From: Planctomycetota bacterium
GTDB lineage: Bacteria; Planctomycetota; Phycisphaerae; Sedimentisphaerales; Anaerohalosphaeraceae
Length of the DNA stretch: 45,048 nt
Assembly: GCA_023143375.1 (NCBI GenBank)
Contig: JAGLHQ010000027.1
Coordinates: 1 to 45,048 of the forward strand
Direction of reading: 5' to 3'
Part shown: positions 3-30,027 of the stretch, piece by piece
Position numbering within the stretch: the stretch's first letter is position 1
Layout: the number at the start of each line of letters is the position of its first letter
The notes under the pieces: model-generated
What the model saw: only the letters and a program-made list of their open reading frames with translations
Told to the model about the DNA's origin: nothing
The model's database searches: none
Position numbers and translations under genes: made by a program

Positions 3-380
3 ATGATGCTGTTTGCTGCGGAGGACCCTCTGTGGTGTTTGTGTGCTATCGTTATCTTCGGGTTGCCGATACTCGATACTGCGGTTGCATTTGCAAGGAG
101 AGGGATAAATAAAAGACCTTTGTTCGTTTCGGATAGAGGACATGTGTATGACCAGATGATGGACCGAGGTAATTCGTTAAGGAAAACGGTAAAGATGTGT
201 TATGGAATATCTGCGGTGTACGCTGCTTGCGGGATAATAATGAGCCAACTTAGACCGATGTGGACGATAATATCATTTGCCGTCATTGTCATCGCTTCTG
301 CGATTATCGTCTGGAAAAAGGGATTCCTAAAAATGGAAGGCCTGCGCGGAGCGATACAAAACGACGCATCAAATCAATAA
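3..380 (+). CDS. C-terminal fragment of a polytopic MraY/WecA-family polyprenyl-phosphate HexNAc-1-phosphate transferase (5' end outside window)
   Basis: The frame is open to the window edge. Hydrophobic helices plus 'VSDRGHVYDQMMDRG' resemble the C-terminal D-R-x-H region of WecA/MraY-type transferases. It is convergent with the minus-strand cluster. Confidence 0.5.
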   Translation: MMLFAAEDPLWCLCAIVIFGLPILDTAVAFARRGINKRPLFVSDRGHVYDQMMDRGNSLRKTVKMCYGISAVYAACGIIMSQLRPMWTIISFAVIVIASAIIVWKKGFLKMEGLRGAIQNDASNQ

Positions 381-434: not shown

Positions 435-2291
435 CTACCGAATCATATTACCTGTAACAGGATTGGTTGAGAAGCCGGCTTTGACAAACTTTATAAGGTA
501 ATCTATTATTTCAAAGATAAACGGTACAGGATCCTTTAGACTAAAATCGTCGTGATGGCATTTTTCAAACTTCATTATCTTGATGGCATCTACAAATCTT
601 GCCCGTTTTACTAACTCAAAAAATGCCAGACAATCTCCTATCAACCATCTGCTTTTTGCTTTGCGATCAACCAGATGACTTCCAATGTCATTTAGTTTCC
701 CTACCGCTGATAAATACCAGTAGTATGGGAAATCAACACCTGCAACGACTGAGAGCGACAATGCCCCCCATAATCTTGGGTTTATCTCTATAAGTTTGAA
801 AACTCCGTCTTTATCAGCAACGAAATCCAGATGAGCTACTCCATGCCATTGCAGTCTATCCATTACTGCGATAGCGTGATCTATCAGTTCTTTATTTTCA
901 AAAACTTCCCTTAAAGTGGATGTTCCAAACCTGTTCGGCTCTTTACATCTGAGATACCTTTCTGCAAATGACACCTTGCACTGTCCGTGTTCATACAAAA
1001 GGCATACACCAACCGCTTCGCCGGGAAGGAATTCCTGAATGACGGGCCACCTTGACTCAGAAAGGTTGAAGGTTTGAACCAGGTCATCAAATTTCTCAAG
1101 AAAGTCCTTTTTATTATCAGCTAGTCTGACGCCCTTGGCACTATTACCTGTTCTGGTTTTGATCACAACCGGGAAATCTTCGACTTGCAGCGATTTTAAT
1201 TCTGCATCAGAGCTGACTTCAAGTGTATTTGGATAAGGACATCCGGACTCTTCAGCTATTTTCAGAAATTTATATTTATCTTCTGCAAGATCGTAGGTTT
1301 CACTATTGGGAACTGCCACACATACATCATCCGGCAAAAGATGTCGATTGTGTGTGAATATCCCCACATCTTCGTGGCACGGCAAAAGGACTTTGGCACC
1401 AGTTTCGCGTAGAGCCTGGCAAACCGATTCGAGATATTTATCCGGCTCAAGAAAGAAATCTGGTAATTTAGTAAATGACTTACAATAACGTGAATAACGA
1501 CTCATCGCAAACGTAGACGCATCGCCAACATGAACATCAATACCTCTTTTGCCTAAAGATTGCACCGCAGCATATGAGCTTCTGCACCACCCGTAAGTTA
1601 TAAAGACTGATGATCGCTGTAAATCTGTAATTGTTAATTCCAGCGGATCATTTTCAACTTTTTCATATAAGGTGTCTTTGCAGATATCGGAATCTACTAC
1701 ATAAATATTGCTTGATACTCCGTGATTATCGATCTGCTTTACAAATTCAAACCCATACTTTACATAAAATTTATTAGCCGGTATGTTTTCGGAACCGACT
1801 AATACCTTAACCTTTTCAATTTTTCTTTCTAGGCACTCCTGAACACCTCGATATACAAGATTCGTTGCCAGTCCGCTGGAACGCATATCCGGGTCGATCG
1901 ATATTGAAAGAAGTTCAGCCGAGGGCAAATCCAATTTCTTGATTCGTTTGGGATAGAAAAGAGTCTCAGAGACTTTTCTAATAGTATCTAACGAAAACAT
2001 CTTACGAGCTAAAACGAATGATAGTTTCAAACCACGTTTGCGAATCACTGATTTGTAAAGAGCGCCGACATTTGTCGTAAAAGCGACATACCCAACAACT
2101 CTACTTTCCTTTACAGCAACAAAACCGAATCCTGACTCGGTAGTGGCTATGGCCTCATATAGAGCAGTTACAAAGCCCAAACCTAAAGAACTTATAAATC
2201 CTGTATGTATGCCCGAAATATGCAATTTTGCAACATCTTCGGCATGAGAAGGTAATAGTTTTGTGATTTTCATGTCGTCAGTCATTTCCAT
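435..2291 (-). CDS. GNAT N-acyltransferase / ATP-grasp ligase fusion protein
   Basis: 618 aa with an ATG start. The N-terminal ~200 aa are GNAT-like ('LLSISIDPDMRSSGLATNLV', 'ANKFYVKYGFEF'). The C-terminal ~400 aa are ATP-grasp (COG3919-like): 'FPVVIKTRTGNSAKGV', 'VIQEFLPGE', 'LIEINPRLWG'. Confidence 0.75.
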   Translation of the reverse strand: MEMTDDMKITKLLPSHAEDVAKLHISGIHTGFISSLGLGFVTALYEAIATTESGFGFVAVKESRVVGYVAFTTNVGALYKSVIRKRGLKLSFVLARKMFSLDTIRKVSETLFYPKRIKKLDLPSAELLSISIDPDMRSSGLATNLVYRGVQECLERKIEKVKVLVGSENIPANKFYVKYGFEFVKQIDNHGVSSNIYVVDSDICKDTLYEKVENDPLELTITDLQRSSVFITYGWCRSSYAAVQSLGKRGIDVHVGDASTFAMSRYSRYCKSFTKLPDFFLEPDKYLESVCQALRETGAKVLLPCHEDVGIFTHNRHLLPDDVCVAVPNSETYDLAEDKYKFLKIAEESGCPYPNTLEVSSDAELKSLQVEDFPVVIKTRTGNSAKGVRLADNKKDFLEKFDDLVQTFNLSESRWPVIQEFLPGEAVGVCLLYEHGQCKVSFAERYLRCKEPNRFGTSTLREVFENKELIDHAIAVMDRLQWHGVAHLDFVADKDGVFKLIEINPRLWGALSLSVVAGVDFPYYWYLSAVGKLNDIGSHLVDRKAKSRWLIGDCLAFFELVKRARFVDAIKIMKFEKCHHDDFSLKDPVPFIFEIIDYLIKFVKAGFSTNPVTGNMIR

Positions 2292-2302
2292 TCAGCTTGT
2301 AG

Positions 2303-3535
2303 TTATTTGCCTACAATGAAACAAACGTTAGTAGTTGCTGTCCCACCGATATTCAATGTTGCAACCTTACTTGCTCCTTCGACCTGATAGTCACCAGCAG
2401 TTCCAGTTACCTGCTTATAAGCATCAAGCAATTGTCTTGCACCTGTTGCTCCGACAGGGTGGCCGCATCCTATAAGACCGCCTGATGGATTGATCGGTAA
2501 TTTCCCGTCCATTGTTATCGTGCCGTCTTCGATAGCTTTCCATGATTGGCCCGGCTTGGTCAGGCCGAAGTGATCTATCGCCATGTACTCACTCGTTGTA
2601 AAGCAGTCATGAGTCTCTATCGCGTCAAGCTGCCAGCAGTCCTTAATCCCTGCACGACTGTAAGCATCCGTAATTGCCTTTCGTGTTACCGGCAAAACGT
2701 ATTGGCTCTCGGCAGAATCTGCAACCTTAGAAGCAAACTCTATCTTAGCGGTGGTATGCCCCCAGCCGAGTATGCCTGGAATATCAGAAAGACTGATACC
2801 TTTTTGTTTGGCATACTTTTTAGCGTATTTCTCCGATGCCAAATACATACACACTGCGCCATCGGTAACCTGGGAACAATCTGCTATCTTTATCTTGCCT
2901 TCAATACACGTATTATATTTACCTTCATTCAAGGCATGATCGAAATTCATAAACCATTCGCGAGTCTGTGCGTTCGGATTATTCCTGGCATTGGCATAAT
3001 TTATTGCTGAGATATGTGCGAGATGTTCATCCTTAAGACCATACCTTTTATCGTACTCATCGCCAAGCTTCCCAAAAAGCTTAGGAAATGGAAACTCTAT
3101 CCCATCGGCTTCTTTTTCAAAAAATGCGGCTGCCCCTAAAAACTCACCGCCTTTTGCAGGATCAACAGTCTTCATCTGCTCTACGCCTACAAGACAGACC
3201 AGATCATACATGCCTGCCTTTATATATGCCATCGCCGCCATGGCAGCTACGGCACTGGATGCACAGGCTGCCTCAAAACGAGTTGTAGGGATACCGGCAA
3301 AACTCGGATCAAAATCTATAAAGAATGCTCCAAGGTGACCTTGCTTACAATACAACTCACCAGCGAAGTTACCGATCAAAGCCGTATCAATATCACTTGG
3401 TTTAATGTCCGTAGCTTCTAAGCTTCCCTGATAAGCCTCACGCATCATCGCTGCGATGTGCTTATTTTCCCTGCTCCAGTTACGAGCAAAGTCTGTTTGG
3501 TATCCGCCTAAAATATAAACTTTTTCATCTTTCAT
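2303..3535 (-). CDS. SCP2-type thiolase (acetyl-CoA C-acyl/acetyltransferase family)
   Basis: 410 aa. The nucleophile Cys lies in 'FEAACASSAVA'. An 'ETHDCFT' (HDCF) loop is characteristic of SCP2-type thiolases. 'CGHPVGATGARQ' is the His motif. Confidence 0.8.
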   Translation of the reverse strand: MKDEKVYILGGYQTDFARNWSRENKHIAAMMREAYQGSLEATDIKPSDIDTALIGNFAGELYCKQGHLGAFFIDFDPSFAGIPTTRFEAACASSAVAAMAAMAYIKAGMYDLVCLVGVEQMKTVDPAKGGEFLGAAAFFEKEADGIEFPFPKLFGKLGDEYDKRYGLKDEHLAHISAINYANARNNPNAQTREWFMNFDHALNEGKYNTCIEGKIKIADCSQVTDGAVCMYLASEKYAKKYAKQKGISLSDIPGILGWGHTTAKIEFASKVADSAESQYVLPVTRKAITDAYSRAGIKDCWQLDAIETHDCFTTSEYMAIDHFGLTKPGQSWKAIEDGTITMDGKLPINPSGGLIGCGHPVGATGARQLLDAYKQVTGTAGDYQVEGASKVATLNIGGTATTNVCFIVGK

Positions 3536-3555
3536 TGAAAACTCCGGTTATTGAA

Positions 3556-4842
3556 CTAACGGGCCAGAAAATGCTTCCCATAGCCAGTTGCCATTTTTTC
3601 ATTCGAAATATCCATCAGCCCCGCTGGAATCTGGAAACCATTTTTATCAAGCAGTTGCATCGCGCAATCCCTACCACCTAACATTTCAACAATATGACTT
3701 GGAGATGCCCAGTTGAATCCATACGACATCACCTTGTCTATACCCTCGATGCCGTCTTCGAGTTCGGCGACCTCTCCGATGCGCCCATAAGAATATGCTA
3801 TATAAACACAAAGTATGTCCTTAACGATCTCCGCTTCTTTCGAGTGGGCCGTGAGTATCGTCTCGAATGCTTCTCTGTACATACCCATATGGATCTGATA
3901 TTTTGCTTTTTCAACAAATGCAACATGAGGAGATATGGCCGGGATATAGTCGCATGTCTCCGGGTCGAGATATACAAACTTGCCGCTTGGCAGTTTTTTA
4001 TAGAACCCGCCGTTGTCACGCGTCTTGTTACCAAGCATATTTTTGTCGATCATACTATTGATATAATCGGGAAGCACGAGCGAATGGTGCATCTCGTCAT
4101 TAGTATTTTCGTTTAGACTATCTATGATCGCCCTATGAATATCAAGACCAACAAGATCAAGCGTTGCAAGCGGAGGCATCAACCTGCCGGTATAGGGACC
4201 GATAAGGTAATCCATCATTTCAACACCATACTCGGCAGCAAGAGATGTAATTCTGTTAAACAGCAAAAAAGCTATCCTGTTACCGGCAAAACCTGCTACT
4301 GCCTTCGTTGGAATAACTACACGCCTGAGCTTCTTTTCAAGAAAAGTTTTGACGAAATTATAAACACTCTTATCGGTATCGCATGTCGAAGCGATCTCGC
4401 AGGCAAGCATTTTGCCGGGGGGATTATAAAAATGTGTTGACATGAAACGCTTTTTAAAACTTTCGCTTCTGCCGACCGGCAGCGAATCAAGCGGCAGCGA
4501 GGATGTCGTAGTTCCGATTATTGCATCGTCACGCCTGTGGGCGTCTATCATCTCATAGACCTGCTGCTTTATCTGAATATCCTCGGCAACACTTTCAATA
4601 ATAAGATCGGCTTTGCCAAGGGCTTCTGCGAGCATGGTGTCATAGTCGCCGCAAGTAATATTGTTTGCGATGACTTCGGAACGAGCCTGCTTAACAGCGC
4701 GATTTAAACCTCTCTCGGCGCTAGCCTTTGTCCTGCTGAGAAAATATACATCCAAACCCTGCTGGGCACACAGACCGCCGGTCAAACTTCCGACTGTCCC
4801 GCCGGAACCCAGAACCGCTACTGTTTTAATTCTTTCTGCCAT
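3556..4842 (-). CDS. NAD-dependent 3-hydroxyacyl-CoA dehydrogenase (long form)
   Basis: 428 aa. Rossmann motif 'VAVLGSGGTVGS'. HADH core 'IIESVAEDIQIK', 'TTSSL', 'THFYNPP...ACEI', 'GFAGNRI'. Confidence 0.8.
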   Translation of the reverse strand: MAERIKTVAVLGSGGTVGSLTGGLCAQQGLDVYFLSRTKASAERGLNRAVKQARSEVIANNITCGDYDTMLAEALGKADLIIESVAEDIQIKQQVYEMIDAHRRDDAIIGTTTSSLPLDSLPVGRSESFKKRFMSTHFYNPPGKMLACEIASTCDTDKSVYNFVKTFLEKKLRRVVIPTKAVAGFAGNRIAFLLFNRITSLAAEYGVEMMDYLIGPYTGRLMPPLATLDLVGLDIHRAIIDSLNENTNDEMHHSLVLPDYINSMIDKNMLGNKTRDNGGFYKKLPSGKFVYLDPETCDYIPAISPHVAFVEKAKYQIHMGMYREAFETILTAHSKEAEIVKDILCVYIAYSYGRIGEVAELEDGIEGIDKVMSYGFNWASPSHIVEMLGGRDCAMQLLDKNGFQIPAGLMDISNEKMATGYGKHFLAR

Positions 4843-4845
4843 ATA

Positions 4846-5406
4846 CTATTGCCCTTTCGCAACTACCTTATACGATTTGTGACAAGATATAAACTCACTT
4901 TTAAGAACACCGATCCTGTGAAGGTCTATCATCTTACCATTAATACATTTATCTTCTCTCAGTGTTCCTTCTATCTTAAACCCAAGTTTTTCTACGATCT
5001 TAATGATTGCAGTATTATTTGTATAAATCACTGCCCATATTTTATTTAGCCCCAGTTCTTCGAACGAATATTTAAGCAGCAATGAGTGAACAACCGAGCC
5101 TATCCCTTTACCCCAAAAGTCTTTTTCGCCAATAACACAAATACATTCGGCATTGCGATGCTTTTGGCTGATGCTAAGCAGGCCTATAATACCTATCGGT
5201 TCCCCTTCTGTGGTCTCAATTACAAAATCCCTTCTTGAGCTATCATCCTTTGCCTTTTCAAACCATTTAAGACTCTTTTCAAGTTCCAATGGCTCGTCGA
5301 TGATCAACGTTTTATTAACGACAGGGTCGTTATACCACTTGACCTTAAGCGGCATGTCAGCCTTTTCCATGGCCCTCAATCGGATGCCGTCGCCTTCAAT
5401 AATCAT
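4846..5406 (-). CDS. GNAT family N-acyltransferase (RimJ/RimL-like)
   Basis: 186 aa. 'IRLRAMEKADMP...WYNDP' N-terminus and a 'FWGKGIGS' acyl-CoA pyrophosphate-binding loop. It starts 3 nt after the dehydrogenase stop. Confidence 0.7.
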   Translation of the reverse strand: MIIEGDGIRLRAMEKADMPLKVKWYNDPVVNKTLIIDEPLELEKSLKWFEKAKDDSSRRDFVIETTEGEPIGIIGLLSISQKHRNAECICVIGEKDFWGKGIGSVVHSLLLKYSFEELGLNKIWAVIYTNNTAIIKIVEKLGFKIEGTLREDKCINGKMIDLHRIGVLKSEFISCHKSYKVVAKGQ

Positions 5407-5418
5407 TAAACAATTCCT

Positions 5419-6663
5419 TTAACCTTCAAAAAGATAGTCCTTGAAAACATCCTCTGCCTTTTGCCGGTTCCTTATCAGTTTATAATCGCTGCCGTCTGCA
5501 ACTACTATTGCAGGAGCAACATTAATAAACGGCGGAGTGAAAACATTCGTATAAGCACCGACATTGTCAAACTGAATATAATCGTCTCTCTCAAGTTTTT
5601 TATTCGTCACCTCGGTCAGCATAACATCTTTTTCCATACAAGTCGAACCTACGACATTGTAGACTGCTGTTTGGTCGGTGTCGGCCTGCTTTATGATATA
5701 GTGCGGCATGTTATAACTATGAAAAGTCGGCTTGGTGTTAAAGGCACTGCCGTCAACTGTCACAAACGTTTTACCTCTTACGGCTTTTACGCTTATGACC
5801 TTGGTAATAAAGCTAAGGGCGTTAGATGCCATCGATATACCCGGCTCAAGCACGAGGAAGGGTTTTTGTTTGACGGCCCACTGATCGTTATTTAGCACCT
5901 TAGCAACATCTGCTGCGTAGTCGTCAAAGGATGGCGTCTCGGCAAACCTAAACTCCGGCGGGATGTAACCATATATGCCGCCGCCAATATTTATGTAACG
6001 AATAGTATCAGGCCAATGCTTAACAGCAATATCGCAAAGCGTCTGGGCAATCGTTTTATAACACCATGTGCTGCGATCTATCGAAGTGGTATGGCCGTGC
6101 AGACTGATAACCTTTACGTTATCAGGCAGCGACTCAAGTAATCTCACCATCTGCGATTCTTCAGTTGAAAAACCAAACCGCCCTATCTTAATATCGCCAT
6201 GAACACGAGAAGCACCGCTATCATCGGATAAATTCATATTGACTCTTATGCCAACCTCAATAGACTTGTCAGGATTAGCAGCGGCATACTTGCTAACATG
6301 ATCGATCTCAGGAAAACAGTCAAGATTAACGATGCTCTGGTTATCGAGAGCAAGCTCAATATCCTCGTAATGTTTCATCGGACCATTGAAAATGATATTT
6401 TTCGGGTCGAATCCTATCTTTAACGCCAGATCATACTCCATCCGCGAAACAACCTCAGCAAAGCCGCCCTTCTTCCGGATAATATTGCACATGTACGGAA
6501 TATAGTTGGTCTTAAAAGAATAACCGATAACAAACTTTTCATATCTCGAACCAAAAGCCTTTGTAATATTATCAAAATTATTAACAAACTCTTTTTCGTT
6601 AAATATATAGAATGGCGAACCTGCAACCACTTCTATTTTTTTAATTTCATCATACGTCTTCAT
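5419..6663 (-). CDS. Fold-type III PLP-dependent decarboxylase (Orn/DAP/Arg decarboxylase family)
   Basis: PLP-Lys context 'GYSFKTNY'. 'SLHGHTTS', 'NIGGGIYG', 'LEPGISM', catalytic Cys 'GSTCMEKD' and 'NVGAYT' are all present. The track start at 6666 is TTG; the ATG at 6663 overlaps the upstream stop as TGATG. Confidence 0.8.
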   Translation of the reverse strand: MKTYDEIKKIEVVAGSPFYIFNEKEFVNNFDNITKAFGSRYEKFVIGYSFKTNYIPYMCNIIRKKGGFAEVVSRMEYDLALKIGFDPKNIIFNGPMKHYEDIELALDNQSIVNLDCFPEIDHVSKYAAANPDKSIEVGIRVNMNLSDDSGASRVHGDIKIGRFGFSTEESQMVRLLESLPDNVKVISLHGHTTSIDRSTWCYKTIAQTLCDIAVKHWPDTIRYINIGGGIYGYIPPEFRFAETPSFDDYAADVAKVLNNDQWAVKQKPFLVLEPGISMASNALSFITKVISVKAVRGKTFVTVDGSAFNTKPTFHSYNMPHYIIKQADTDQTAVYNVVGSTCMEKDVMLTEVTNKKLERDDYIQFDNVGAYTNVFTPPFINVAPAIVVADGSDYKLIRNRQKAEDVFKDYLFEG

Positions 6664-7316
6664 CAAGTACCTTTGGTAATATCTTTATTGGAAGATTCTT
6701 TTTGCTCGGTTCCCCAGAATTGCTCAATAGTAGCTGAGCCTTCCTCGGTAATACCATGTCTTTTGAAAACTAATGCAACTGTCTTGAAAAGTATTTTAAT
6801 ATCTATCCACACATTCCAGTTGTCAACGTACCACACATCCAGCTTAAACCTGTCTTCCCATGAGATAGCATTCCTGCCATTAACCTGTGCCCATCCGGTT
6901 ATGCCGGGCCTGGCCTCATGCCTGCGAAGCTGCTCTGGGGTATAACGCGGCAAATACTTCATCATCAATGGACGCGGACCAACAAGGCTCATGTCACCCT
7001 TTAACACACATAAAAGCTCCGGCAGTTCGTCAAGGCTTGTGCTTCGCAACAATTTACCAAAAGGCGGTAACCGTTTTTCGTCATGCAATAGGTTCCCCTG
7101 CTCATCACGCTGATCGGTCATTGTGCGAAACTTGTACATAAAGAAGGGCTCGCTGTTTAAACCAGGACGCTCTTGCTTAAAAAGTACCGGGCTGCCAAGC
7201 TTTAAACGGACTATTAGTGCTGTAATTAGCAACACCGGCGAAAGCAATAACAGACCTACAAGTGAAGCTGCAATATCAATGAATCTTTTTAATATATGTT
7301 TCATTTGAAACTTCAT
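6663..7316 (-). CDS. Monotopic phosphoglycosyl transferase (bacterial sugar transferase, PglC / WbaP C-terminal type)
   Basis: One N-terminal hydrophobic helix, 'YKFRTM', 'SLDELPELLCVLKGDMSLVGPRP'. The track start (7322) is TTG-GTG; the first ATG is at 7316. Confidence 0.85.
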   Translation of the reverse strand: MKFQMKHILKRFIDIAASLVGLLLLSPVLLITALIVRLKLGSPVLFKQERPGLNSEPFFMYKFRTMTDQRDEQGNLLHDEKRLPPFGKLLRSTSLDELPELLCVLKGDMSLVGPRPLMMKYLPRYTPEQLRRHEARPGITGWAQVNGRNAISWEDRFKLDVWYVDNWNVWIDIKILFKTVALVFKRHGITEEGSATIEQFWGTEQKESSNKDITKGT

Positions 7317-7322
7317 CACCAA

Positions 7323-8378
7323 TCAATGTTCAGGAATAGGCCAAATATTCAGTTTCTTACCCTGCCTAAGATCGGACGCTGCGATACTGCTTGAGTCCGG
7401 CGAAAAAACTATGGGCCCGGGCAAATTTGGCGATGGACGTTGAGAATGAATTTCTATTTTATTTTTATGATCGAAAACATACATTTCAAAACCATATATA
7501 TAAGCGATCATCGAATCGTCGGGGCTGATCGCAATATTTTGAATAGAAATGGTATCATGGGCAGCCGATGCTTCTTTTTTAAATTTAAACTGATCTATGA
7601 CCCTGCCGTCTGAGGTCTGAATATAATATACCGATCCATCGCTGCCCCCAGCATAAATGGTCTTACCGTCAAAAGAGAAAACAACAGCACCGAATCCATC
7701 TGGACTGGCATAAGTTTTGTCCCACGTCACACGTCCCCGCGTAATATCAACCAGCACCAGCCGAGCCTTATGATCCTGCTCACCGGCGGCTGTGACAAAC
7801 CCGCCGTCATCTGAAACCGCAAAATCCGTCAACTGTATCAAAGAGTTGTCATCACTTACTTGAGTTATCCTTGATGAACGTTTTCTTTCAAGATCAATGT
7901 TATAAAATTTATAATCAGTTAAGTCTTTAGAATCTGACGAAACAGCTAATACCGCAACAAGAGCGTTTCGATCACGGCTGCTGATTATCGTACCTAAGTC
8001 GGTATCAGAGCTAAGCCGAATCTCTTTTTCGATCTTTTCACCCTGCACGCTCGATACAACAACAGCTGAGGAGCGACCTTGCTTTATTGAAACAACAGAA
8101 TCGGCATCAAGCAGCAACGCCTGACCAAAAGCCGACGTTCCGTTTATAGCCTTTTGATCTAAGCTATTCCAATCCCAGAGAAATGTTTTACCATCGGATG
8201 CAACCGCCAACAATCTATTATCATACGTTGACAGAGACCGTATACCTTCATTGCGAGGCATCTCAAGGACCACTTCAACATCCTTGCTTTGATTAGCAAT
8301 AAGCATCACAACAATGATCACAATAAAACCGCCGACAAACAGCAACGCCGGCTTTTTGTTTTGCTTTGTTTTAGACAT
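7323..8378 (-). CDS. Membrane-anchored WD40-like beta-propeller repeat protein
   Basis: N-terminal signal anchor 'ALLFVGGFIVIIVVMLIA'. Blade-like repeats recur ('FSFDGKTIYAGGSDGSVYY', 'ISPDDSMIAY', 'FSPDSSSIAASD'). Its stop abuts the transferase start region. Confidence 0.55.
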   Translation of the reverse strand: MSKTKQNKKPALLFVGGFIVIIVVMLIANQSKDVEVVLEMPRNEGIRSLSTYDNRLLAVASDGKTFLWDWNSLDQKAINGTSAFGQALLLDADSVVSIKQGRSSAVVVSSVQGEKIEKEIRLSSDTDLGTIISSRDRNALVAVLAVSSDSKDLTDYKFYNIDLERKRSSRITQVSDDNSLIQLTDFAVSDDGGFVTAAGEQDHKARLVLVDITRGRVTWDKTYASPDGFGAVVFSFDGKTIYAGGSDGSVYYIQTSDGRVIDQFKFKKEASAAHDTISIQNIAISPDDSMIAYIYGFEMYVFDHKNKIEIHSQRPSPNLPGPIVFSPDSSSIAASDLRQGKKLNIWPIPEH

Positions 8379-8450: not shown

Positions 8451-9677
8451 CTATTTGCGTTTAACACTTTCAAATATTTCTATATAACGCTGCGAAGCAA
8501 ATTCAAAAGAAAGATTTTTGTCGTAGTAATCCATTCCATTATCACCCATTTCCTGCAAGTCTCCTCTGTCCATTTCATAAAACTTCAGGACTTTTTCAGC
8601 AATATCCTTGCTGTTTTCCGGCTCACATCTCAATCCGGCTTTTGCATCTTCTACGAGTTTCGATGCATCTCCTTTTACTCCCATCAAGACCGGTCGTCCA
8701 GTAGCCAAATAGGCCTGGGTTTTTGACGGCACTGTTATTCTAAATAACGGATCGTCACGTAAATGCACCAACAGCACATCTGCGATCCTCAGTATCGAAC
8801 CTATCTCGGAAATCGGTTTTAGAGGATGAAATATTACATTGCTCAACGATAGTTCTGCAACTCTCTGCTTAAGGCTTTCGACCTCTACGCCGCTGCCAAT
8901 AAAAACAAACTGTATGTCAGGTTTATCTTTTTCCAATAACCTCGCAGCTTCTATAACAGAACCAATTGCCTGAGCCTTGCCCATGCCTCCAGCAAAAAGA
9001 ATGTTGAATTTCCCATCCATCCCAAGCTCTCTGGCCAGTTCCTGATTCGGCTCTTCTCGGCATATTAGCGATGAATCACACCAGTTGTAGACTACCTCTA
9101 TTTTTTCCTCCGGAACCCCCCTTTCGATTAGGATTTGCTTCATGCCGGGAGAAATAGCCACGATCATAGATGCACGTTTATAAACAAAGTTACACCACGT
9201 ATTGACAATTTTAAGCAAAGCTTTGTTGTTAAGCATTCCCGTACTGGCCAACGAGTCAGGCCAAAGATCCATAATATTGTATACGAAAGGAATTCTGCGG
9301 AACAGCTTATGCACTATAGCAGGCAAGCCTATTGTCGCCGGGCCCTGTGAAACGAAAGCAACATCGGCATCCTTAACTGCAAACGGGCCGATCAAAGACT
9401 GCGAAAGCGACAAACTGGTATAGCTTAAAATGCGTTTGATCGAAGATTTGTTATGACTCGGATAAATGGGAAGACGAATTACAGGAACACCGTCCATGGT
9501 TTCACGCTGCATAAACTTAACTTTGTAACCATCGTAGATCTTACCGCCCGGATAATTCGGAAAGCCTGTTAAAACCTGAACCTCATGCCCGGCATCCATA
9601 AGTGCCTTTGCAAAAGGTAAACCCACAAAAAAATTAGGCTCGGGTTGAAAGTAATGTTCGATAAATAAAATCTTCAT
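8451..9677 (-). CDS. wbuB: GT4 glycosyltransferase, WbuB-like (putative L-FucNAc transferase)
   Basis: 'MKILFIEHYFQPEPN...TGFPNYPGGKIYDGY' is the typical WbuB-type N-terminus. C-terminal GT-B motif 'PSKTQAYLATGRPVL'. It sits in the same cassette as fnlABC. Confidence 0.7.
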   Translation of the reverse strand: MKILFIEHYFQPEPNFFVGLPFAKALMDAGHEVQVLTGFPNYPGGKIYDGYKVKFMQRETMDGVPVIRLPIYPSHNKSSIKRILSYTSLSLSQSLIGPFAVKDADVAFVSQGPATIGLPAIVHKLFRRIPFVYNIMDLWPDSLASTGMLNNKALLKIVNTWCNFVYKRASMIVAISPGMKQILIERGVPEEKIEVVYNWCDSSLICREEPNQELARELGMDGKFNILFAGGMGKAQAIGSVIEAARLLEKDKPDIQFVFIGSGVEVESLKQRVAELSLSNVIFHPLKPISEIGSILRIADVLLVHLRDDPLFRITVPSKTQAYLATGRPVLMGVKGDASKLVEDAKAGLRCEPENSKDIAEKVLKFYEMDRGDLQEMGDNGMDYYDKNLSFEFASQRYIEIFESVKRK

Positions 9678-10283: not shown

Positions 10284-12326
10284 CTATGGAACAGGTATCT
10301 TAACCCAGGATGTTTTAGTTGTGCCCACCGATTGCCATAGTGCACCGCCGGTTCCATCGGTCTGTCTGTAAAGGGTGCCTGCTTCACCAGGCACAACTCT
10401 ATCATATGGTGAACCTGCCCCAATCAAGGCACCTGTTGCCTTTGTGATATTCGACCAATCAAATATTGCCTCTCCCGCTATAATCGTATTAGTATTGTCC
10501 CAGGCGAGCCACCCGACAGGATTATTCAGATAATCTTTTGTAATATAAACGGCATAGCCTCCAGGGGCGTTAAAAGTGTTCGCAGAAAATTTGAGATAAG
10601 ACATGCCTCTAAGCGTACAGGCATAAAATGTTGGTATAGAATGTTCAAATGTATTTCCAATGACAGACCATTTCGAGTCTTTAGCGTCTCCGGTACAAAT
10701 CAACCCAAATCCATTTGGACTTGTAATCTGGTTACCGGAAATAACAACGTTCCCATTGTTATCATACACCCGAATGCCGTGCTCAGTTCCGATGGCACCA
10801 TCTGAAGCTCCACAAATAACATTGTCGGAAATCATCATATCTGTTACATTCCCTGCAATTACCCCATAACCACCATTACGTAAAATGTTATTTGAAATAA
10901 TAACACTGTCAGCATAGCTTGTTTTTATACCACTGACAGTAATGCACGCCTGTTTTCCAACGCCCGTCTGGCCGCCTGGAGTATCTACAATGTTATTTGA
11001 AATAATAGCTCTGGGACGATAGTTGCTTCCAGCTTGATACCCCGGAACATAGCTAATTGCGCCCTCTGTAGCTATATTCTTTGTAGTTGTTTGTCCATTA
11101 CAAATAAAATTATCAGTACACACAAAATTTTTCACACTTTTTGCCGAAATTGCACAAAAACCGCATTGTTCAAAATAATTTCCTATTATCCGAGCGCCGT
11201 TTAAAGTTGGATAACAATGTACAGGAGAAATATCACTAACTCCATAATGTTGGCCGATACCATAGAAATAACACCCGCTAACTTCTAGTGTTGTCATATT
11301 ATCATCTACGTTAATAAACATTCCTCCCGGAGAAGCACCGTCTGCATGTGCAGGAACCTTGGCGACAAAGTCACAGTTAGTGACACGAATTACGCCTCCA
11401 ACATTAGCTTGCCCGCTTACTACTATAATGGCACAAGTTGAATCTCCCTCCAAATTAACGCATTCAGCCATGTTAGTAAACTTACAGCCGTCAATGACGA
11501 AATTGCCGCCAAAATTCTGCATATAGAATGCGGATCTAACCGTGTTGACGAACTTTACGTCATAAATCTCAACGCTCTTTCCCGACTCGATCGGACCAGC
11601 GAAAAGCACGGGCCATTTGAGCTGATTGTCTTTATTGCCATCAAATGTTCCGCCGCGAATTGTCAGGCTGTTAGCTTGAAAATCGACCATTTGCACACTA
11701 TTTCCTGCCTTGTGCTTGATCGTAGCTGCAGGGTCTAAGTTCCAATATGAATCGATAGTGAGATCAAGGTTACCAATAACATACGTCCCTGGCGGAACAT
11801 GCATTTGTTCACCTGATGCAGCTGCAATTGCTGCTGAAAAGGCGGCTGTATCATCCGTGATCCCGTCGCCCTTGGCTCCATAATCCTTAACATTAACAAA
11901 AAGGCTCTCATTAGTCTTGCCAGCCGTTTCCGCATAAAGGACATATGGCACAGCTGTAATCCGCTGACGAGGTAACAGTTGCGTATAAGTGTTAGGATCT
12001 TCAAGTTCACCAGGTCGGACAGCAACTTCTAACCAGCGAGCATTGCCATCAAACGCAACACTTCCGAAATCCAACAACACTGTAAAGTAACCATCAACAA
12101 CATCAATATCCACCCGGCTGAGATCGCTTCCGATCTGACCGCCTCCAGTTCCGGCACCGAAAAGTTTAAACTGAAAGTCAAAGGAACCGTCAGCTGCGCT
12201 TCCGGCATCAGAAAGACGCCCCTGATACGTAAAGGCGGTTCCTAGAGGCTCAGCAATAATGTTGGAAGTTATGGATAGTGCGACCAGCAAGATCGCAACA
12301 TATAATGAAAACTTCAAAAACCTCAT
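10284..12326 (-). CDS. Secreted right-handed beta-helix (pectate-lyase-fold) protein, glycanase/tailspike-like
   Basis: Signal peptide. 'VKDYGAKGDGITDDTAAF' (pectate_lyase_3-type N-cap). There are many '(I/V)-x-x-N-x-(I/V)' coils ('ISNNIV', 'ISNNIL', 'ISDNVI', 'ISGNQI'). Confidence 0.7.
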   Translation of the reverse strand: MRFLKFSLYVAILLVALSITSNIIAEPLGTAFTYQGRLSDAGSAADGSFDFQFKLFGAGTGGGQIGSDLSRVDIDVVDGYFTVLLDFGSVAFDGNARWLEVAVRPGELEDPNTYTQLLPRQRITAVPYVLYAETAGKTNESLFVNVKDYGAKGDGITDDTAAFSAAIAAASGEQMHVPPGTYVIGNLDLTIDSYWNLDPAATIKHKAGNSVQMVDFQANSLTIRGGTFDGNKDNQLKWPVLFAGPIESGKSVEIYDVKFVNTVRSAFYMQNFGGNFVIDGCKFTNMAECVNLEGDSTCAIIVVSGQANVGGVIRVTNCDFVAKVPAHADGASPGGMFINVDDNMTTLEVSGCYFYGIGQHYGVSDISPVHCYPTLNGARIIGNYFEQCGFCAISAKSVKNFVCTDNFICNGQTTTKNIATEGAISYVPGYQAGSNYRPRAIISNNIVDTPGGQTGVGKQACITVSGIKTSYADSVIISNNILRNGGYGVIAGNVTDMMISDNVICGASDGAIGTEHGIRVYDNNGNVVISGNQITSPNGFGLICTGDAKDSKWSVIGNTFEHSIPTFYACTLRGMSYLKFSANTFNAPGGYAVYITKDYLNNPVGWLAWDNTNTIIAGEAIFDWSNITKATGALIGAGSPYDRVVPGEAGTLYRQTDGTGGALWQSVGTTKTSWVKIPVP

Positions 12327-22281: not shown

Positions 22282-23649
22282 TTAATGAATGTCATTATTT
22301 CCCTGGGAAACGATTCTCCCGTTTGAAACAACAGGGCCAAGCAGCCGGTTATTGTAATAACGGCCAAGAGTAACGTCGACACCTTGATAAACGCCAAACA
22401 ACGGTTGCCCCTTACCCCGATACATCTGATTATTTTCAAGATCAACTGTTCCATTACCTGACAGAAAAATCCCGCATCGCTTATAAATATCGCCGTCAGT
22501 AACATGGACGGGGTCTTTGATCACATTGTCAACAATAGCAACTTTCGACTTTTTTATAACATTGCAAAAAATACCGGACCATTTTGTTGTCGTAATAACA
22601 TTATCACGGATATAACCGCTACAGGGCACCGCCAAAATGCCATACGTAGTATCGACAAGCTCATTATTCTGTATATTAACCTTTTTAGCGTAATTGACTT
22701 GTATCCCATAATCAAATCGATCTACCCGATTGTTTTCAATGTGTACACCTTCCCAGTAAACGCCTTTTGCAGGCCCCTCAGGTTTAGCGGATCCAACAGC
22801 AATGCCCGCCTGCCCGGGACTGTTTGTCTCTTCCACTGTACAGATATTATTCGTTATACGGATATCTGTTTCAGTTTCCTTGTGCCCGTTATTCATTTGC
22901 AATTTTATGCCAAGATAACGGATGTTTGTTAATTTATTATTGTAAATATTTACATGTGAAGACGCATTTAAATACATCCCATGCTGCCCTCGTATATCCA
23001 TAAAAGTATTATCATGAATATCGAGATGATCGTGTCCCATGTACAGGATCAAACCCATGGCAGTTTTGTAAAAAAGACAATTCTTTATTTCCCAATTACT
23101 ACACTTGGTACCGTAACTCCATATACCGCTATTAAACGCATCGCCGGCTTTTACTGCAACTGTCTCAGCGCTGAAAAGGCACTGGTCAAAAGTTATATTT
23201 GATACGTTGTGAGCCTTAAACCCGGCTGTTCCATGGTCATAAAACTTCACTTTTTCAAGTAGGTGCTGCCCTGTACAACGCTGCATCGAAACACCCAAAC
23301 CATCCGTACCCTTGAATGGTTTATAAGAGGAGGGATCGCCCACCAATACAATATCCCTGATTGTCACATTATTGCAATCTACTATTTTTATTATGACAGC
23401 ATTTCGTTTTAATTGAGTTATAGTTTGACCATGTCCATCAATCGTAATATTTGATTTCCCCTTAAAAACCACTGTCCCATCTATCTTCGATGAGCCGGAC
23501 AACGCAAATGTCCCACCGTTTTCTAAACGATCCGCTTGATTCTGCAACACGCGGAGTGACTGATTTGAAAATGCTGTTGATGAAAACATCACTAAAACAA
23601 CAAGCATAAAGAAAACACAACTATTTCTTTTCAATAATGAATCAAACAC
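22282..23649 (-). CDS. Secreted parallel beta-helix (PbH1) repeat protein
   Basis: Signal peptide 'CVFFMLVVLVMFSSTAFS'. Coil signatures recur: 'IHDNTF', 'IYNNKL', 'ITNNIC', 'IENNRV', 'IQNNEL', 'IRDNVI', 'VDNVI', 'LENNQM'. GTG start behind AGGGAG. Confidence 0.7.
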   Translation of the reverse strand: MFDSLLKRNSCVFFMLVVLVMFSSTAFSNQSLRVLQNQADRLENGGTFALSGSSKIDGTVVFKGKSNITIDGHGQTITQLKRNAVIIKIVDCNNVTIRDIVLVGDPSSYKPFKGTDGLGVSMQRCTGQHLLEKVKFYDHGTAGFKAHNVSNITFDQCLFSAETVAVKAGDAFNSGIWSYGTKCSNWEIKNCLFYKTAMGLILYMGHDHLDIHDNTFMDIRGQHGMYLNASSHVNIYNNKLTNIRYLGIKLQMNNGHKETETDIRITNNICTVEETNSPGQAGIAVGSAKPEGPAKGVYWEGVHIENNRVDRFDYGIQVNYAKKVNIQNNELVDTTYGILAVPCSGYIRDNVITTTKWSGIFCNVIKKSKVAIVDNVIKDPVHVTDGDIYKRCGIFLSGNGTVDLENNQMYRGKGQPLFGVYQGVDVTLGRYYNNRLLGPVVSNGRIVSQGNNDIH

Positions 23650-27546: not shown

Positions 27547-27556
27547 TCGTGGTTCC
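27526..27556 (-). repeat. Family A repeat, copy A3 (right inverted arm; supplies the SD, ATG and MNTNEHE of the GxxExxY gene)
   Basis: The minus strand reads GGAACCACGAATGAACACTAATGAACACGAA. Confidence 0.85.
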
Positions 27557-27577
27557 TTTTTCGTCAGCGGCTGCAAA

Positions 27578-28678
27578 CTAACTCAAAAACGCAAGCAGCG
27601 TATCCGCCGTAAAATCTTTCATCTCATCGGTCAGTTCAGGATAGACCGGCAATGCGATCACTTCCTTGCAAGCCTTCTCTGTTTCCGGCATATCGCCTTG
27701 CTTATATCCAAGATATTCAAAACACTTCTGCATATGAAGCCCAAGCGGATAATAAACACAACAACCGATATTATTCTCACGCAGATGCGCGAGCACCTCG
27801 TCACGCTTCGGCACACGAACCACATACTGGTTATAGATCGAAACACAATCCGCCTCGATATAAGGCGTCTCTACAACCGAACCGGCAAACTTTTTATTAT
27901 AATACGCCGCGTTGTCCCTGCGACCCTGCGACCACTCGTCAAGATATTGCAGCTTAACGAGCAACCCCGCAGCCTGCAGTGCATCAAGCCGGAAGTTACC
28001 GCCGACAACCTCATTAAAATATTTATGCCCGCCGCCGTGGTTCCGCATTATCAAAAGGTCTTTCTTAACTTCTTCGTCATTGGTAACCGTCATGCCGCCG
28101 TCACCGATACCGCCAAGATTTTTGCTCGGATAAAAACTAAAACACCCGATCATCCCGAAGCTGCCCGCCTTCTTACCCTTGTAGCTGCTGGTAACAGACT
28201 GCGCCGCATCTTCGATAACATACAAGTTGTGCTTCTTGGCGATCGCCATAATAGCATCCATATCCGCCATCTGGCCAAAAAGGTGAACCGGCAAGATAGC
28301 CTTGGTCTTATCGGTTATCGCCGCCTCTATCTTCGACGGATCAATGTTATATGTCTTAGGATCGATGTCCACAAACACAGCCTTTGCTCCCGACCTGTGA
28401 ATACATCCCGCTGTCGCAAAAAACGTAAACGGCGTCGTAATAACCTCGTCGCCTGCGCCGATACCAAGAGCCATCAAACTCATCAAGATAGCATCGGTAC
28501 CGCTCGACGCGCCAACCCCGTATTTACAATCGCTCGACGCCGCGATCTTTTCTTCAAGCTCGACAACCCGCGGGCCGTTGATACATATCTGAGAATCAAG
28601 AACCTCAGTTACCGCTGCCAACATCTCGTCCCTGATCTTCGCGTACTGCGCCTTTAGATCCAATAATGGTACTTGCAT
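27578..28678 (-). CDS. DegT/DnrJ/EryC1-family PLP sugar aminotransferase (WbpE-like)
   Basis: 'GTDAILMSL', 'VIEDAAQS', PLP-Lys 'SFYPSKNLGGIGDGG', 'MRNHG'. Confidence 0.85.
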   Translation of the reverse strand: MQVPLLDLKAQYAKIRDEMLAAVTEVLDSQICINGPRVVELEEKIAASSDCKYGVGASSGTDAILMSLMALGIGAGDEVITTPFTFFATAGCIHRSGAKAVFVDIDPKTYNIDPSKIEAAITDKTKAILPVHLFGQMADMDAIMAIAKKHNLYVIEDAAQSVTSSYKGKKAGSFGMIGCFSFYPSKNLGGIGDGGMTVTNDEEVKKDLLIMRNHGGGHKYFNEVVGGNFRLDALQAAGLLVKLQYLDEWSQGRRDNAAYYNKKFAGSVVETPYIEADCVSIYNQYVVRVPKRDEVLAHLRENNIGCCVYYPLGLHMQKCFEYLGYKQGDMPETEKACKEVIALPVYPELTDEMKDFTADTLLAFLS

Positions 28679-28913: not shown

Positions 28914-29918
28914 CTATTTTCCATGATCCTTCAATATCTTCTCGCGTTCTGCGATCACCATATCCGTATCCGTCATCATCTCAGCAAGCTGCTTAAACGA
29001 AACCTTAGGCTCCCATCCAAGCACCTTTTTCGCCTTAGTCGCATCTCCCAGCAAAAGGTCAACCTCAGTCGGACGGTAATAACGCGGATCGATCTCGACA
29101 TACTTTTCCCAGTCAAGATCGAGATGCCCGAACACCTCATCAAGAAACTCGCGAACAGAATAAGTATGCCCTGTAGCGACTACATAATCGTCAGGCTTGT
29201 CCTGTTGAAGCATCAACCACATCGCCTCGACATAATCGCCCGCAAACCCCCAGTCACGTTTAGCGTCAAGATTACCCAGAAAAAGCTTCTCTTGAAGACC
29301 AAGCTTAATCCGCGTCGCCGCACGCGTTATCTTACGAGTAACAAAAGTCTCACCCCGACGAGGCGACTCATGATTGAACAGTATCCCGCAACACGCAAAC
29401 AGATCGTACGCCTCACGATAATTAATCGTCTGCCAATGGCTATAAACCTTGCAACAGCCGTAAGGACTCCGCGGATAAAAACCCGTCGTCTCAGTCTGAG
29501 GCGTTTCGAGAACCTTACCGTACATCTCACTGCTCGATGCCTGATAAAACCTCGGCGGCGTCTTCATCGTCCTGATCGCCTCAAGAACCCTTAACGTCCC
29601 AAGCGCATCGGTGTCAGCCGTGTAGATCGGCATATCGAAACTAACCCGAACATGGCTCTGTGCACCGAGGTTATAAACCTCGTCCGGTTTAATATCATGG
29701 ATCACTTTCGAAAGATCGCCGCCGTCGGTCAGATCGCCATAGATCAGTTTCAGCTTAGGCTGATCGTGAGGATCCTTATACAAATGATCGATCCTCCCCG
29801 TATGAAACGACGAGCTGCGTCGAATTATCCCATAAACCTCATAACCCTTATCAAGAAGAAGCTCTGTAAGATAAGATCCGTCCTGACCCGTAATCCCTGT
29901 TATCAATGCCTTTTTCAT
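28914..29918 (-). CDS. gmd: GDP-mannose 4,6-dehydratase
   Basis: '[22 protein letters not shown]', 'QASSSEMYG', '[10 protein letters not shown]', '[10 protein letters not shown]'. The ATG at 29918 gives the canonical N-terminus; the 17 extra track codons lie in repeat C1. Confidence 0.9.
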
Positions 29919-29964
29919 ATCCGTCCTTAATATTCCATATATTATCAAAAATACATTACATCTT

Positions 29965-30027
29965 GTCATTCCAGCGAAAGTCGTAGATGCCTTAGTTTAC
30001 GCCCAAGGTGGTGCTGGAATCCATTTT
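29965..30027 (+). repeat. Family C repeat, copy C1 (long-loop hairpin upstream of gmd)
   Basis: gtcattccagcgaaagtcgtagat...gctggaatccattt. The ATTCCAGC/GCTGGAAT stem encloses a loop of about 38 nt. Confidence 0.8.

Follow-up and report, generated by a model that had tools for sequence, protein, structure and literature searches.

In Acinetobacter, an N-acyltransferase encoded next to the initiating phosphoglycosyl transferase (PGT), QhbA/QhbC or WeeI, is predicted to add a 3-hydroxybutanoyl group to the 4-amino group of UDP-QuiNAc4N, a UDP-4-amino-4,6-dideoxy-HexNAc that is afterwards built into the glycan; in the pseudaminic acid (Pse) gene set with Psb5 or PsaG/H, Psb5 is likewise predicted to acylate a UDP-4-amino altrose intermediate, and Pse5Ac7(3-hydroxybutanoyl) is found in Shigella boydii O7 / A. 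baumannii (PMC3628348, PMC9676051). Amino sugars with an N-(3-hydroxybutanoyl) group are thoroughly documented, and E. coli O123 and Salmonella O58 have N-(3-hydroxybutanoyl)-D-alanyl on Qui4N (cited in PMC7685785). In Neisseria PglB2, a PGT is fused to an ATP-grasp domain in place of the acetyltransferase domain, and a 4-glyceramido sugar (glyceramido-acetamido-trideoxyhexose) results (PMC11130364, PMC6959607); Cj1435-Cj1438 of Campylobacter jejuni HS:2 provide an ATP-dependent amidoligase in glucuronamide formation (PMC11800379). Further genetic precedents for ATP-grasp enzymes that decorate glycans are Shewanella SfmE, C. difficile CDR20291_0245, and Campylobacter Cj1438. Non-carbohydrate substituents set the antigenicity, charge, phage recognition, and immune modulation of bacterial surface glycans, and the genes for many of them are unknown. 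Here we describe a block of six genes, a PGT gene followed by five tailoring genes, in a 45,048-nt stretch of planctomycete DNA (contig JAGLHQ010000027.1, assembly GCA_023143375.1; the whole stretch is called the window). The parts of this block have close precedents (QhbA/C, WeeI, and Psb5; PglB2; BtrK of butirosin and FslC of rhizoferrin biosynthesis); the combination was not found described in the literature searched. The first-pass annotation of the window, which knew of no characterised pathway with this set of genes, was right for the combination.

The block ends a ~33 kb Wzx/Wzy-type glycan operon of an uncultured planctomycete metagenome-assembled genome (MAG), and its five tailoring genes are a mosaic of three separable modules, not a single co-inherited unit. 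Our best explanation of the whole (probability roughly 0.55) is that three modules form a cassette for an N-acyl decoration other than acetyl, which most likely sits on the amino sugar loaded by the PGT. We consider the more general claim, a modular cassette for acyl or aminoacyl glycan decoration with 3-hydroxybutyryl-CoA supplied from within the locus, to be likely, and the specific roles given below to the decarboxylase, the two GNATs, and the acceptor to be tentative.

Gene order and modularity of the block

The genes are transcribed in the order PGT, decarboxylase, GNAT2 (a stand-alone GNAT), 3-hydroxyacyl-CoA dehydrogenase (HADH), thiolase (THL), and GNAT/ATP-grasp fusion (2291..435; Table 1). 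Open reading frames (ORFs) and sequence bear out the tight co-directional packing reported in the first-pass annotation: the PGT stop shares a base with the decarboxylase ATG (ACT TGATG AAG), and consecutive genes after the decarboxylase are 12, 3, 20, and 11 nt apart. The domains assigned to the six proteins were confirmed by Pfam scores above the gathering thresholds. Only 54 nt separate the stop of the fusion gene from the end of the convergent Glycos_transf_4 gene, which makes the block the operon's 3' end. A promoter and terminator scan was uninformative, internal promoter-like sites being no commoner than in shuffled sequence. The fusion protein has an identical copy on contig DAOVIA010000004.1 (MAG GCA_030671605.1), and its homologues carry the names Planctomycetota, Sedimentisphaerales, Anaerohalosphaeraceae, or Phycisphaerae.

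Related loci, ~165 in total, were scored for every block protein: 80 genome loci anchored on the ATP-grasp protein, 80 metagenome loci anchored on the decarboxylase, and several Pfam-annotated contigs (individual loci carry L numbers). At least 10 independent contigs, from MAGs or metagenomes, keep the block gene order with protein identities of 53-83%, more than chance would give, and the complete order PGT-decarboxylase-GNAT2-HADH-THL-(GNAT)ATP-grasp is found in L005, L009, L045, L099, and L102/L174 at 53-79% identity. Other loci hold parts of it. L011, L012, L014, L015, L020, and L021 have WD40-HADH-THL-GNAT-...-ATP-grasp without PGT, decarboxylase, and GNAT2; L008 and L173 have PGT-decarboxylase-GNAT2 plus ATP-grasp without HADH/THL; and no ATP-grasp gene was found, profile search included, in the PGT-decarboxylase-GNAT2 loci L085-L089 and L105. 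Inheritance of the five genes as one unit was ruled out, as HADH/THL, decarboxylase/GNAT2, and ATP-grasp were each seen without the others.

The decarboxylase-anchored sample is unbiased as to partner genes and was binned by decarboxylase identity to the window. In the ≥50% bin, which represents the window's lineage, the PGT gene adjoins the decarboxylase gene in 12/13 loci and GNAT2 does so in 10/10; a WD40 gene is present in 13/13, and ATP-grasp is adjacent in 0/10 and found anywhere in 3/10. In the 38-46% bin a PGT gene is adjacent upstream in 19/35 loci, and the adjacent amide-forming gene is a 335-aa PylC-like ATP-grasp (25/28) and never GNAT2 (0/28). The coupling of decarboxylase to PGT proposed in the first-pass annotation is thus borne out, and the proposed pairing of decarboxylase and ATP-grasp is true of the 38-46% bin and, independently, of L063/L064, but not of the window's lineage, where the neighbour is a GNAT. 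We concluded that PGT, decarboxylase, and GNAT2 form a core module that is constant in the window's lineage, that the acyl-donor cassette is exchangeable, and that the ATP-grasp ligase is optional.

The neighbourhood survey that the first-pass annotation had suggested for the five-gene block placed all relatives found within glycan loci, although as three modules instead of one unit; a distribution mainly outside glycan loci was looked for and did not appear among the ~165 loci sampled. This bears on the idea that the thiolase/HADH pair or the whole block is a catabolic (lipid or amino-acid) or small-molecule (siderophore-like, polyamine) operon abutting the glycan locus. Pfam calls agree with the earlier statement that none of the five tailoring proteins alone is a sugar-nucleotide enzyme, and FslC, one of the nearest relatives that the decarboxylase has, is a siderophore enzyme. 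Yet the genes are separated by 3-20 nt, the PGT and decarboxylase genes overlap, and every related locus holds the block genes between GT4/WD40/PGT (GT4, glycosyltransferase family 4) and the convergent Glycos_transf_4 gene; in the ~165 loci sampled, HADH/THL relatives were seen only in glycan loci, and no enoyl-CoA hydratase, acyl-CoA dehydrogenase, NRPS-independent siderophore (NIS) synthetase, or transporter is present. An abutting operon is therefore highly improbable, and we regard it as essentially ruled out by synteny.

Thiolase and HADH as a predicted acyl-donor cassette

The thiolase scores 605.5 bits against NF004936 (cut-off 375), and SCP2-thiolase-like structures are its best solved relatives (E = 1e-54). 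It has the nucleophilic ACAS cysteine (FEAACASS), the GHP histidine (GCGHPVG), and the HDCF-loop cysteine (ETHDCFTT). HADH matches PF02737 with 103.4 bits (threshold 22) and PF00725 with 39.3 bits (threshold 22.1) and is closest to 3-hydroxybutyryl-CoA dehydrogenase structures (E = 2e-19). It has the GxGxxG motif, the His...Glu pair in HFYNP...E (HFYNPPGKMLACE, His and Glu 12 residues apart), and, like enzymes of the FadB type, a second domain at the C-terminus; it reaches no NCBIfam equivalog cut-off, and chain-length specificity is thus not fixed. A thiolase and a 3HCDH-family dehydrogenase together yield (S)-3-hydroxybutyryl-CoA from acetyl-CoA.

HADH and thiolase genes are always paired where the contig covers both positions, and they always lie next to a GNAT gene, either GNAT2 upstream or a third GNAT type (G218) downstream. 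In sister loci the position after GNAT2 is taken by other acyl-donor sets: a methylmalonyl-CoA-epimerase-like protein with an FkbH-domain protein (340 bits vs 147), a methyltransferase, and an acyl carrier protein (ACP), or two 2-hydroxyacyl-CoA-dehydratase-like subunits with an activase (229 vs 125), FkbH, and ACP. The FkbH set and HADH/THL are both present in L006 and L010. The occurrence of these sets at the same position supports the reading of thiolase and HADH as a cassette for 3-hydroxybutyryl-CoA, and with the inseparable pairing and the ever-adjacent GNAT it makes this, by context, the best-supported part of the first-pass interpretation. A dedicated ACP was not found in the block, whose genes lie too close together (3-20 nt) for an ORF to fit between them, and PP-binding genes were seen only in FkbH-type sister loci. 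The literature searched gave no report of a thiolase/HADH pair within a glycan (O-antigen or capsule) locus; a match in the Legionella literature proved to be no more than a table column of best matches.

The set with the 2-hydroxyacyl-CoA-dehydratase-like pair, activase, FkbH, and ACP was observed in the acyl-donor position of L089 (8832-13917), L091, and L104. The 2-hydroxyacyl-CoA dehydratases are oxygen-sensitive radical enzymes, a type unexpected in a glycan locus.

GNAT2 and its described counterparts

The R/QxxGxG/A motif can be read in the translations of the block GNATs. GNAT2 scores 82.1 bits against the PseH model TIGR03585, a near miss of the cut-off of 93.1, and matches the PseH structure with E = 8e-10; against the SpeG model NF011709 it scores 83.6 bits (cut-off 218), and SpeG structures are its best PDB matches (E = 2e-20). 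Its gene lies one gene from the PGT gene and is the constant downstream partner of the decarboxylase gene in the lineage. By analogy, we infer that GNAT2 is an N-acyltransferase with thioester donors in the position of PglD, QhbA/C, or PseH/Psb5.

The likeness to the Acinetobacter ItrA-QhbA/QhbC-QhbB-Gdr (WeeI/J/K) and Psb5/PsaG-H systems is one of gene position: the acyltransferase gene is PGT-proximal, as in the window, or part of the Pse set. In the papers examined those loci have no thiolase/HADH, and they lack the decarboxylase and ATP-grasp genes, whereas the window has all of these. A Qhb/Wee-type arrangement would have 4-aminotransferase and 4,6-dehydratase genes together with the acyltransferase gene next to the PGT gene; in the window the aminotransferase gene is 21 kb from the PGT gene.

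The PGT-linked decarboxylase

The decarboxylase keeps the pyridoxal phosphate (PLP) lysine (K52 in YSFKTNY), the HGH and GGG motifs, the cysteine (C343), and the tyrosine (in GAY). The first-pass annotation had called all catalytic motifs of the block intact; they are readable in the translations, except that the window decarboxylase has an isoleucine for the EPGR arginine, which all solved relatives in the alignment keep (among them the LysA and FslC chains). The lysA model TIGR01048 is the best family model, with 181.2 bits against a cut-off of 297.9. Nearest among solved proteins are diaminopimelate (DAP) decarboxylase, FslC (E = 9e-30), and BtrK (E = 9e-20), the BtrK structures 2j66/7ru7 matching over the full length with E ~1e-19; annotations of the solved relatives include N-citrylornithine decarboxylase and L-glutamyl-[BtrI ACP] decarboxylase. 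Relatives across 33-83% identity have in common the residues EPG[I/V/S/T/L], C-M-E-x-D, R141, and R163, joined by D305, K312, and H316 down to ~38% identity, and this signature unites the GNAT2-type and ATP-grasp-type groups. The family is large, with 1,433 relatives at E ≤ 1e-20 and at least 540 confirmed metagenome matches; the PylC-like ATP-grasp partner has at least 6,750 relatives.

A housekeeping LysA identity was ruled out: the protein is below the curated cut-off, is without the EPGR arginine, and is always encoded in glycan loci. The decarboxylases of L051/L063/L064 were rejected as members of the subfamily (EPGR kept, identity 24-25%), and are therefore an independent case of decarboxylase-ATP-grasp adjacency. 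The window decarboxylase is also distant from the exosortase-A-associated decarboxylase family (105 bits vs 478).

The constant neighbour of the decarboxylase is the PGT. An amide-forming enzyme flanks it in nearly all loci, and the downstream neighbour is either GNAT2 or a PylC-like ATP-grasp, which are mutually exclusive. In the 38-46% lineage the order GT4-PGT-(SDR)-decarboxylase-ATP-grasp-DegT (SDR, short-chain dehydrogenase/reductase) is found in L109, L126, and L170; decarboxylase and ATP-grasp here occupy the PglD slot of PglC/D/E/F-type cassettes, with the GNAT replaced by the PylC-like ATP-grasp. L130 has the decarboxylase and ATP-grasp genes in a cluster of PseB-like, PseC-like, cytidylyltransferase, unknown, decarboxylase, ATP-grasp, and NeuB genes, and neither a GNAT2/PseH-like gene nor a uronic acid gene was detected in this Pse-type cluster. 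Besides Planctomycetota, the decarboxylase cassette has carriers among many metagenome contigs from other lineages, including one with the label koala-derived. The search for carriers of the PGT, decarboxylase, and PylC-like trio gave no matches in plasmid and phage collections. No description of the PGT/decarboxylase/ATP-grasp cassette was found in the literature searched, and the PGT-linked EPG[I/V/S] decarboxylase cassette appears to be widespread and undescribed. In L171/L172 (8326-11471) a PylC-like ATP-grasp gene stands between genes for a small PGT and an MBOAT (DltB-like) protein, without a decarboxylase gene, a further PGT-linked ligase arrangement that appears to be undescribed.

BtrK and FslC decarboxylate amino acids whose side chain has been conjugated beforehand, and we propose an analogous role for the window decarboxylase. 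It falls in the same LysA-like clade; in the BtrJ/BtrK and FslA/FslC systems an amide is formed on an amino-acid side chain before the fold-III decarboxylation, and here an amide-forming enzyme flanks the decarboxylase in nearly all loci. The differences are a GNAT as partner in place of an ATP-dependent ligase, no carrier protein or NIS synthetase, the lost EPGR arginine, and the glycan context.

The substrate might instead be unconjugated. The decarboxylase would then turn free DAP, lysine, ornithine, or a comparable basic or diamino acid into a diamine or lysine, GNAT2 would mono-acylate the product with 3-hydroxybutyryl-CoA, and the remaining amine would be attached to the glycan, by ATP-grasp where present. 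The lysA model as best match of the decarboxylase, the spermidine/diamine N-acetyltransferases as best solved relatives of GNAT2 (E = 2e-20), and the PylC-like nature of the alternative partner are in line with this route, since PylC acylates the epsilon-amine of lysine; L105, with decarboxylase and GNAT2 genes but no ligase, ACP, or FkbH gene nearby, would also fit an unconjugated substrate. Set against these points, attachment of the amine would have no enzyme in loci without ATP-grasp, co-occurring uronic-acid genes are lacking, the equivalence to the PglD/PseH slot favours a sugar amine as acceptor, and GNAT2 is far under the SpeG cut-off (84 vs 218) but near that of PseH (82 vs 93). We consider the free-amine route unlikely.

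The ATP-grasp fusion protein

The AlphaFold model of the ATP-grasp domain (predicted local distance difference test score, pLDDT, 93.4) matches ATP-grasp enzymes with a Foldseek probability of 1.0. Its Foldseek neighbours, biotin carboxylases, an L-amino-acid ligase, and PylC, are generic and give no substrate clue, and the domain models confidently as a generic carboxylate-amine ligase. The family occurs in glycan loci of at least six phyla, often by PGT, DegT, and PglF-like genes; carriers are Planctomycetota, Opitutaceae, Gammaproteobacteria (Luteimonas, Halomonas, Spiribacter), Cyanobacteria (Microcoleus), Desulfobacterota, and others.

The N-terminal partner varies: a RimI-like GNAT in the window, Formyl_trans_N in L173, a FemAB-like Acetyltransf_6 in L174, a double GNAT in L020/L021, or none. 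The fusion GNAT domain tracks the ATP-grasp domain and not HADH/THL (L008). All these partners modify free amines. Ligation therefore probably yields a product with an exposed amine for later capping, as expected of a ligated amino acid.

The ATP-grasp gene is four genes from the PGT gene in the window, and relatives adjoin PGT/DegT genes in L037, L043, and L176. In arrangement, ATP-grasp genes beside PGT/DegT (L026, L037, L043, L109, L126, L170, L171, L176) resemble Neisseria PglB2. Apart from its distance from the PGT, the window enzyme differs from PglB2 in being fused to a GNAT instead of a PGT and in having a decarboxylase alongside.

Candidate acceptor sugars

The ~33 kb same-strand glycan locus upstream of the block holds genes for a WD40-like membrane protein, a WbuB/WcaI-like GT4, two beta-helix proteins, FnlA/FnlB/FnlC-like proteins, WecB-like epimerases, a GFO/IDH/MocA oxidoreductase, more GT4s, a TviC-like epimerase, and SDRs, together with two polytopic proteins that have no Pfam match. 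Domain and profile annotation recognised no acyltransferase in this locus besides the two block GNAT domains. The sole UDP-GlcNAc 4,6-dehydratase-type gene in the window is FnlA-like, and the order FnlABC-GT4-WD40-PGT is common to L015, L021, and L089.

The sole DegT gene of the window is a candidate source of the acceptor amine. Its best NCBIfam match is PseC (249 bits vs a cut-off of 423); it adjoins a bona fide Gmd gene (535 bits vs 415) and lies 9 kb from the WbpB-like gene. These neighbours make a role of the perosamine or PseC type no less likely than a WbpE-like one. Of the WbpB/WbpE/WbpI-like set plus ugd that the first-pass annotation had described as lacking an acetyltransferase, the ugd-like gene and the lack of any other acyltransferase stand, but the WbpE assignment is doubtful. 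The UDP-glucose-6-dehydrogenase (ugd)-like gene overlaps a UXS/ArnA-like SDR gene by 4 nt and is 24 kb from the decarboxylase gene; given this overlap, glucuronate may be consumed to a pentose or 4-keto-pentose instead of being incorporated as a uronic acid.

Twenty-five long loci were examined within ±10 kb of the decarboxylase gene. DegT genes were found in 13/25 and UDP-sugar 6-dehydrogenase genes in 0/25, which, with the PglB2 precedent, makes the 4-amino group of the initiating sugar a likelier decoration site than a uronic carboxylate. The same counts bear on the version given in the first-pass annotation, in which ATP-grasp and decarboxylase would amidate a uronic carboxylate as in Campylobacter (Cj1436-1438) and a GNAT would put 3-hydroxybutanoyl on a 3-amino uronic sugar. 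It can draw on the ugd-like, TviC-like (UDP-GlcNAcA 4-epimerase), WecB-like, and GFO/IDH/MocA genes of the window, on the lack of another acyltransferase, on an HAD hydrolase gene between two ATP-grasp genes in L045 that recalls the Campylobacter phosphatase, and on the precedent of an ATP-dependent amidoligase (PMC11800379). Besides the missing 6-dehydrogenases, it has against it that decarboxylase and ATP-grasp are never adjacent in the window's lineage and some of its loci have no ligase, that the ugd product may be consumed, that DegT lies beside Gmd and not the WbpB-like gene, and that the L130 pair sits in a Pse-type cluster without a uronic acid gene. The glucuronamide decarboxylase of Campylobacter is a fold-type I enzyme with serine phosphate as substrate, and that of the window is of fold III. 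We therefore consider amidation of a uronic acid improbable, rather more so than the free-amine route.

Like the window, C. jejuni HS:2 has an amidoligase and a PLP decarboxylase in a surface-polysaccharide locus, to which L045 adds an HAD hydrolase. In Campylobacter the amidoligase is part of a large glycosyltransferase protein, and a uronic-acid dehydrogenase gene does not co-occur with the decarboxylase gene in the loci sampled here. The Campylobacter analogy thus fails on fold type and on co-occurrence.

A proposed decoration pathway

For the three-module cassette we infer substrates, order of steps, and acceptor sugar as follows. The small PGT would load an amino sugar onto undecaprenyl phosphate. 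The thiolase would condense two acetyl-CoA to acetoacetyl-CoA, HADH would reduce this to (S)-3-hydroxybutyryl-CoA, and GNAT2 would move the 3-hydroxybutyryl group from CoA to an amine. The ATP-grasp domain would join a free carboxylate, most likely that of an amino acid, to an amine, as proposed for the PglB2 domain with glycerate, and the fused GNAT domain would cap the amine created by this ligation. The decarboxylase would strip the alpha-carboxylate of the amino-acid moiety to give a terminal primary amine, and a neighbouring enzyme would acylate it, GNAT2 in the window's lineage and the PylC-like ATP-grasp in others.

Several observations weigh against this reading. In L026 a window-type ATP-grasp coexists with a PglD-like (LbH) acetyltransferase, so there is no simple replacement there. 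Loss of the EPGR arginine possibly affects cofactor or substrate binding of the decarboxylase. L105-type loci encode nothing within ±10 kb to attach an amino acid, and their decarboxylase may therefore act on a free amino acid. GNAT2 falls just under the PseH cut-off, and by structure it is closest to polyamine acetyltransferases; with two GNATs and one ligase in the block, co-occurrence is the only ground for giving the 3-hydroxybutyryl transfer to GNAT2 over the fusion GNAT. Only 1/4 of the long loci from the window's lineage has a DegT gene within ±10 kb. With the sole window DegT 21 kb away and beside Gmd, the acceptor could be GDP-perosamine, or the initiating sugar could be no 4-amino sugar.

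An extension beyond the window is still more tentative than the individual roles: PGT, EPG[I/V/S] decarboxylase, and an interchangeable amide-forming partner, either a GNAT using thioester donors or a PylC-like ATP-grasp using free acids, could be a widespread pathway that gives the initiating sugar a decarboxylated amino-acid arm (omega-aminoacyl or diamine) whose terminal amine is variously capped. The caps would be 3-hydroxybutanoyl here and glyceroyl-type or other groups elsewhere. If true, glycans would have a substituent of a new class in this arm, and fold-III decarboxylases a substrate of a new type. If a glycan locus indeed carries its own 3-hydroxybutyryl-CoA supply as one of several plug-in cassettes, a simple genomic rule would predict N-acyl diversity. 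The enzymes are soluble and small, and candidate substrates are accessible via known Pgl/Pse enzymes.

Other features of the window

Table 1. Positions of the block genes and of other genes in the window.
Feature	Position	Strand	Assignment and remarks
PGT, small monotopic, PglC-like Bac_transf	6663..7322, gene-caller start 7316 (217 aa)	minus	PF02397 220 bits; DE + PRP motifs
Fold-III PLP decarboxylase, LysA-like subfamily	5419..6666, ATG at 6663	minus	PF02784 + PF00278 (Orn_Arg_deC_N + Orn_DAP_Arg_deC)
GNAT2, Acetyltransf_3, PseH/SpeG-like N-acyltransferase	4846..5406	minus	PF13302 87.5 bits
HADH, 3-hydroxyacyl-CoA dehydrogenase, 428 aa	3556..4842	minus	PF02737 (3HCDH_N) + PF00725 (3HCDH)
Thiolase (THL), SCP2-type, acetyl-CoA acetyltransferase family PRK06289	2303..3535	minus	Thiolase_N + Thiolase_C_1; NF004936
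Fusion protein, RimI-like GNAT domain, ~residues 1-215	1647..2291	minus	Pfam Acetyltransf_1
Fusion protein, ATP-grasp carboxylate-amine ligase domain, ~residues 221-618	435..1631	minus	Pfam ATP-grasp_3 + ATPgrasp_Ter
Glycos_transf_4 (WecA/MraY-like), C-terminal end, convergent	3..380	plus	full 380-aa gene with PF00953 in L001
WD40-like beta-propeller protein, predicted membrane-anchored	7323..8378	minus	weak WD40/beta-propeller matches; adjoins PGT upstream
GT4 glycosyltransferase, WcaI/WbuB-like	8451..9677	minus	FnlA/B/C-type set farther upstream
Right-handed beta-helix protein (680 aa)	10284-12326	minus	Pect-lyase_RHGA_epim/NosD-like
Right-handed beta-helix protein (455 aa)	22282-23649	minus	Pect-lyase_RHGA_epim/NosD-like
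PD-(D/E)XK_3 family ORF (137 aa)	27163-27576	minus	
DegT-family sugar aminotransferase, sole one in window	27578..28678	minus	Pfam DegT 397 bits; adjoins Gmd (29969..28914)
UDP-glucose-6-dehydrogenase-like gene and UXS/ArnA-like SDR gene	31357-33623	minus	
Release factor 2	38898-40010	minus	
PEP-CTERM protein	40178-40897	minus	

The WD40-like protein gene stands directly upstream of the PGT gene in 13/13 informative loci of the lineage and is absent from more distant decarboxylase loci; the protein may belong to the glycan machinery of this lineage specifically. The end of the locus has two initiating-type transferases, the small Bac_transf PGT and the convergent WecA/MraY-like Glycos_transf_4, a pairing that recurs in L085, L173, and L174. 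The two beta-helix proteins could be polymer-level epimerases or lyases. The PD-(D/E)XK_3 family ORF directly follows the DegT gene, within the part of the operon that holds the sugar-nucleotide genes. About 7 kb past the glycan locus there is a gene for a PEP-CTERM protein, and its presence implies that the organism has an exosortase system. The release factor 2 gene has a programmed +1 frameshift: the first frame starts with the ATG at 40010 and ends with CTT TGA C (39942-39936), and the main ORF runs on to 38898, so the short 288-aa ORF is no truncation.

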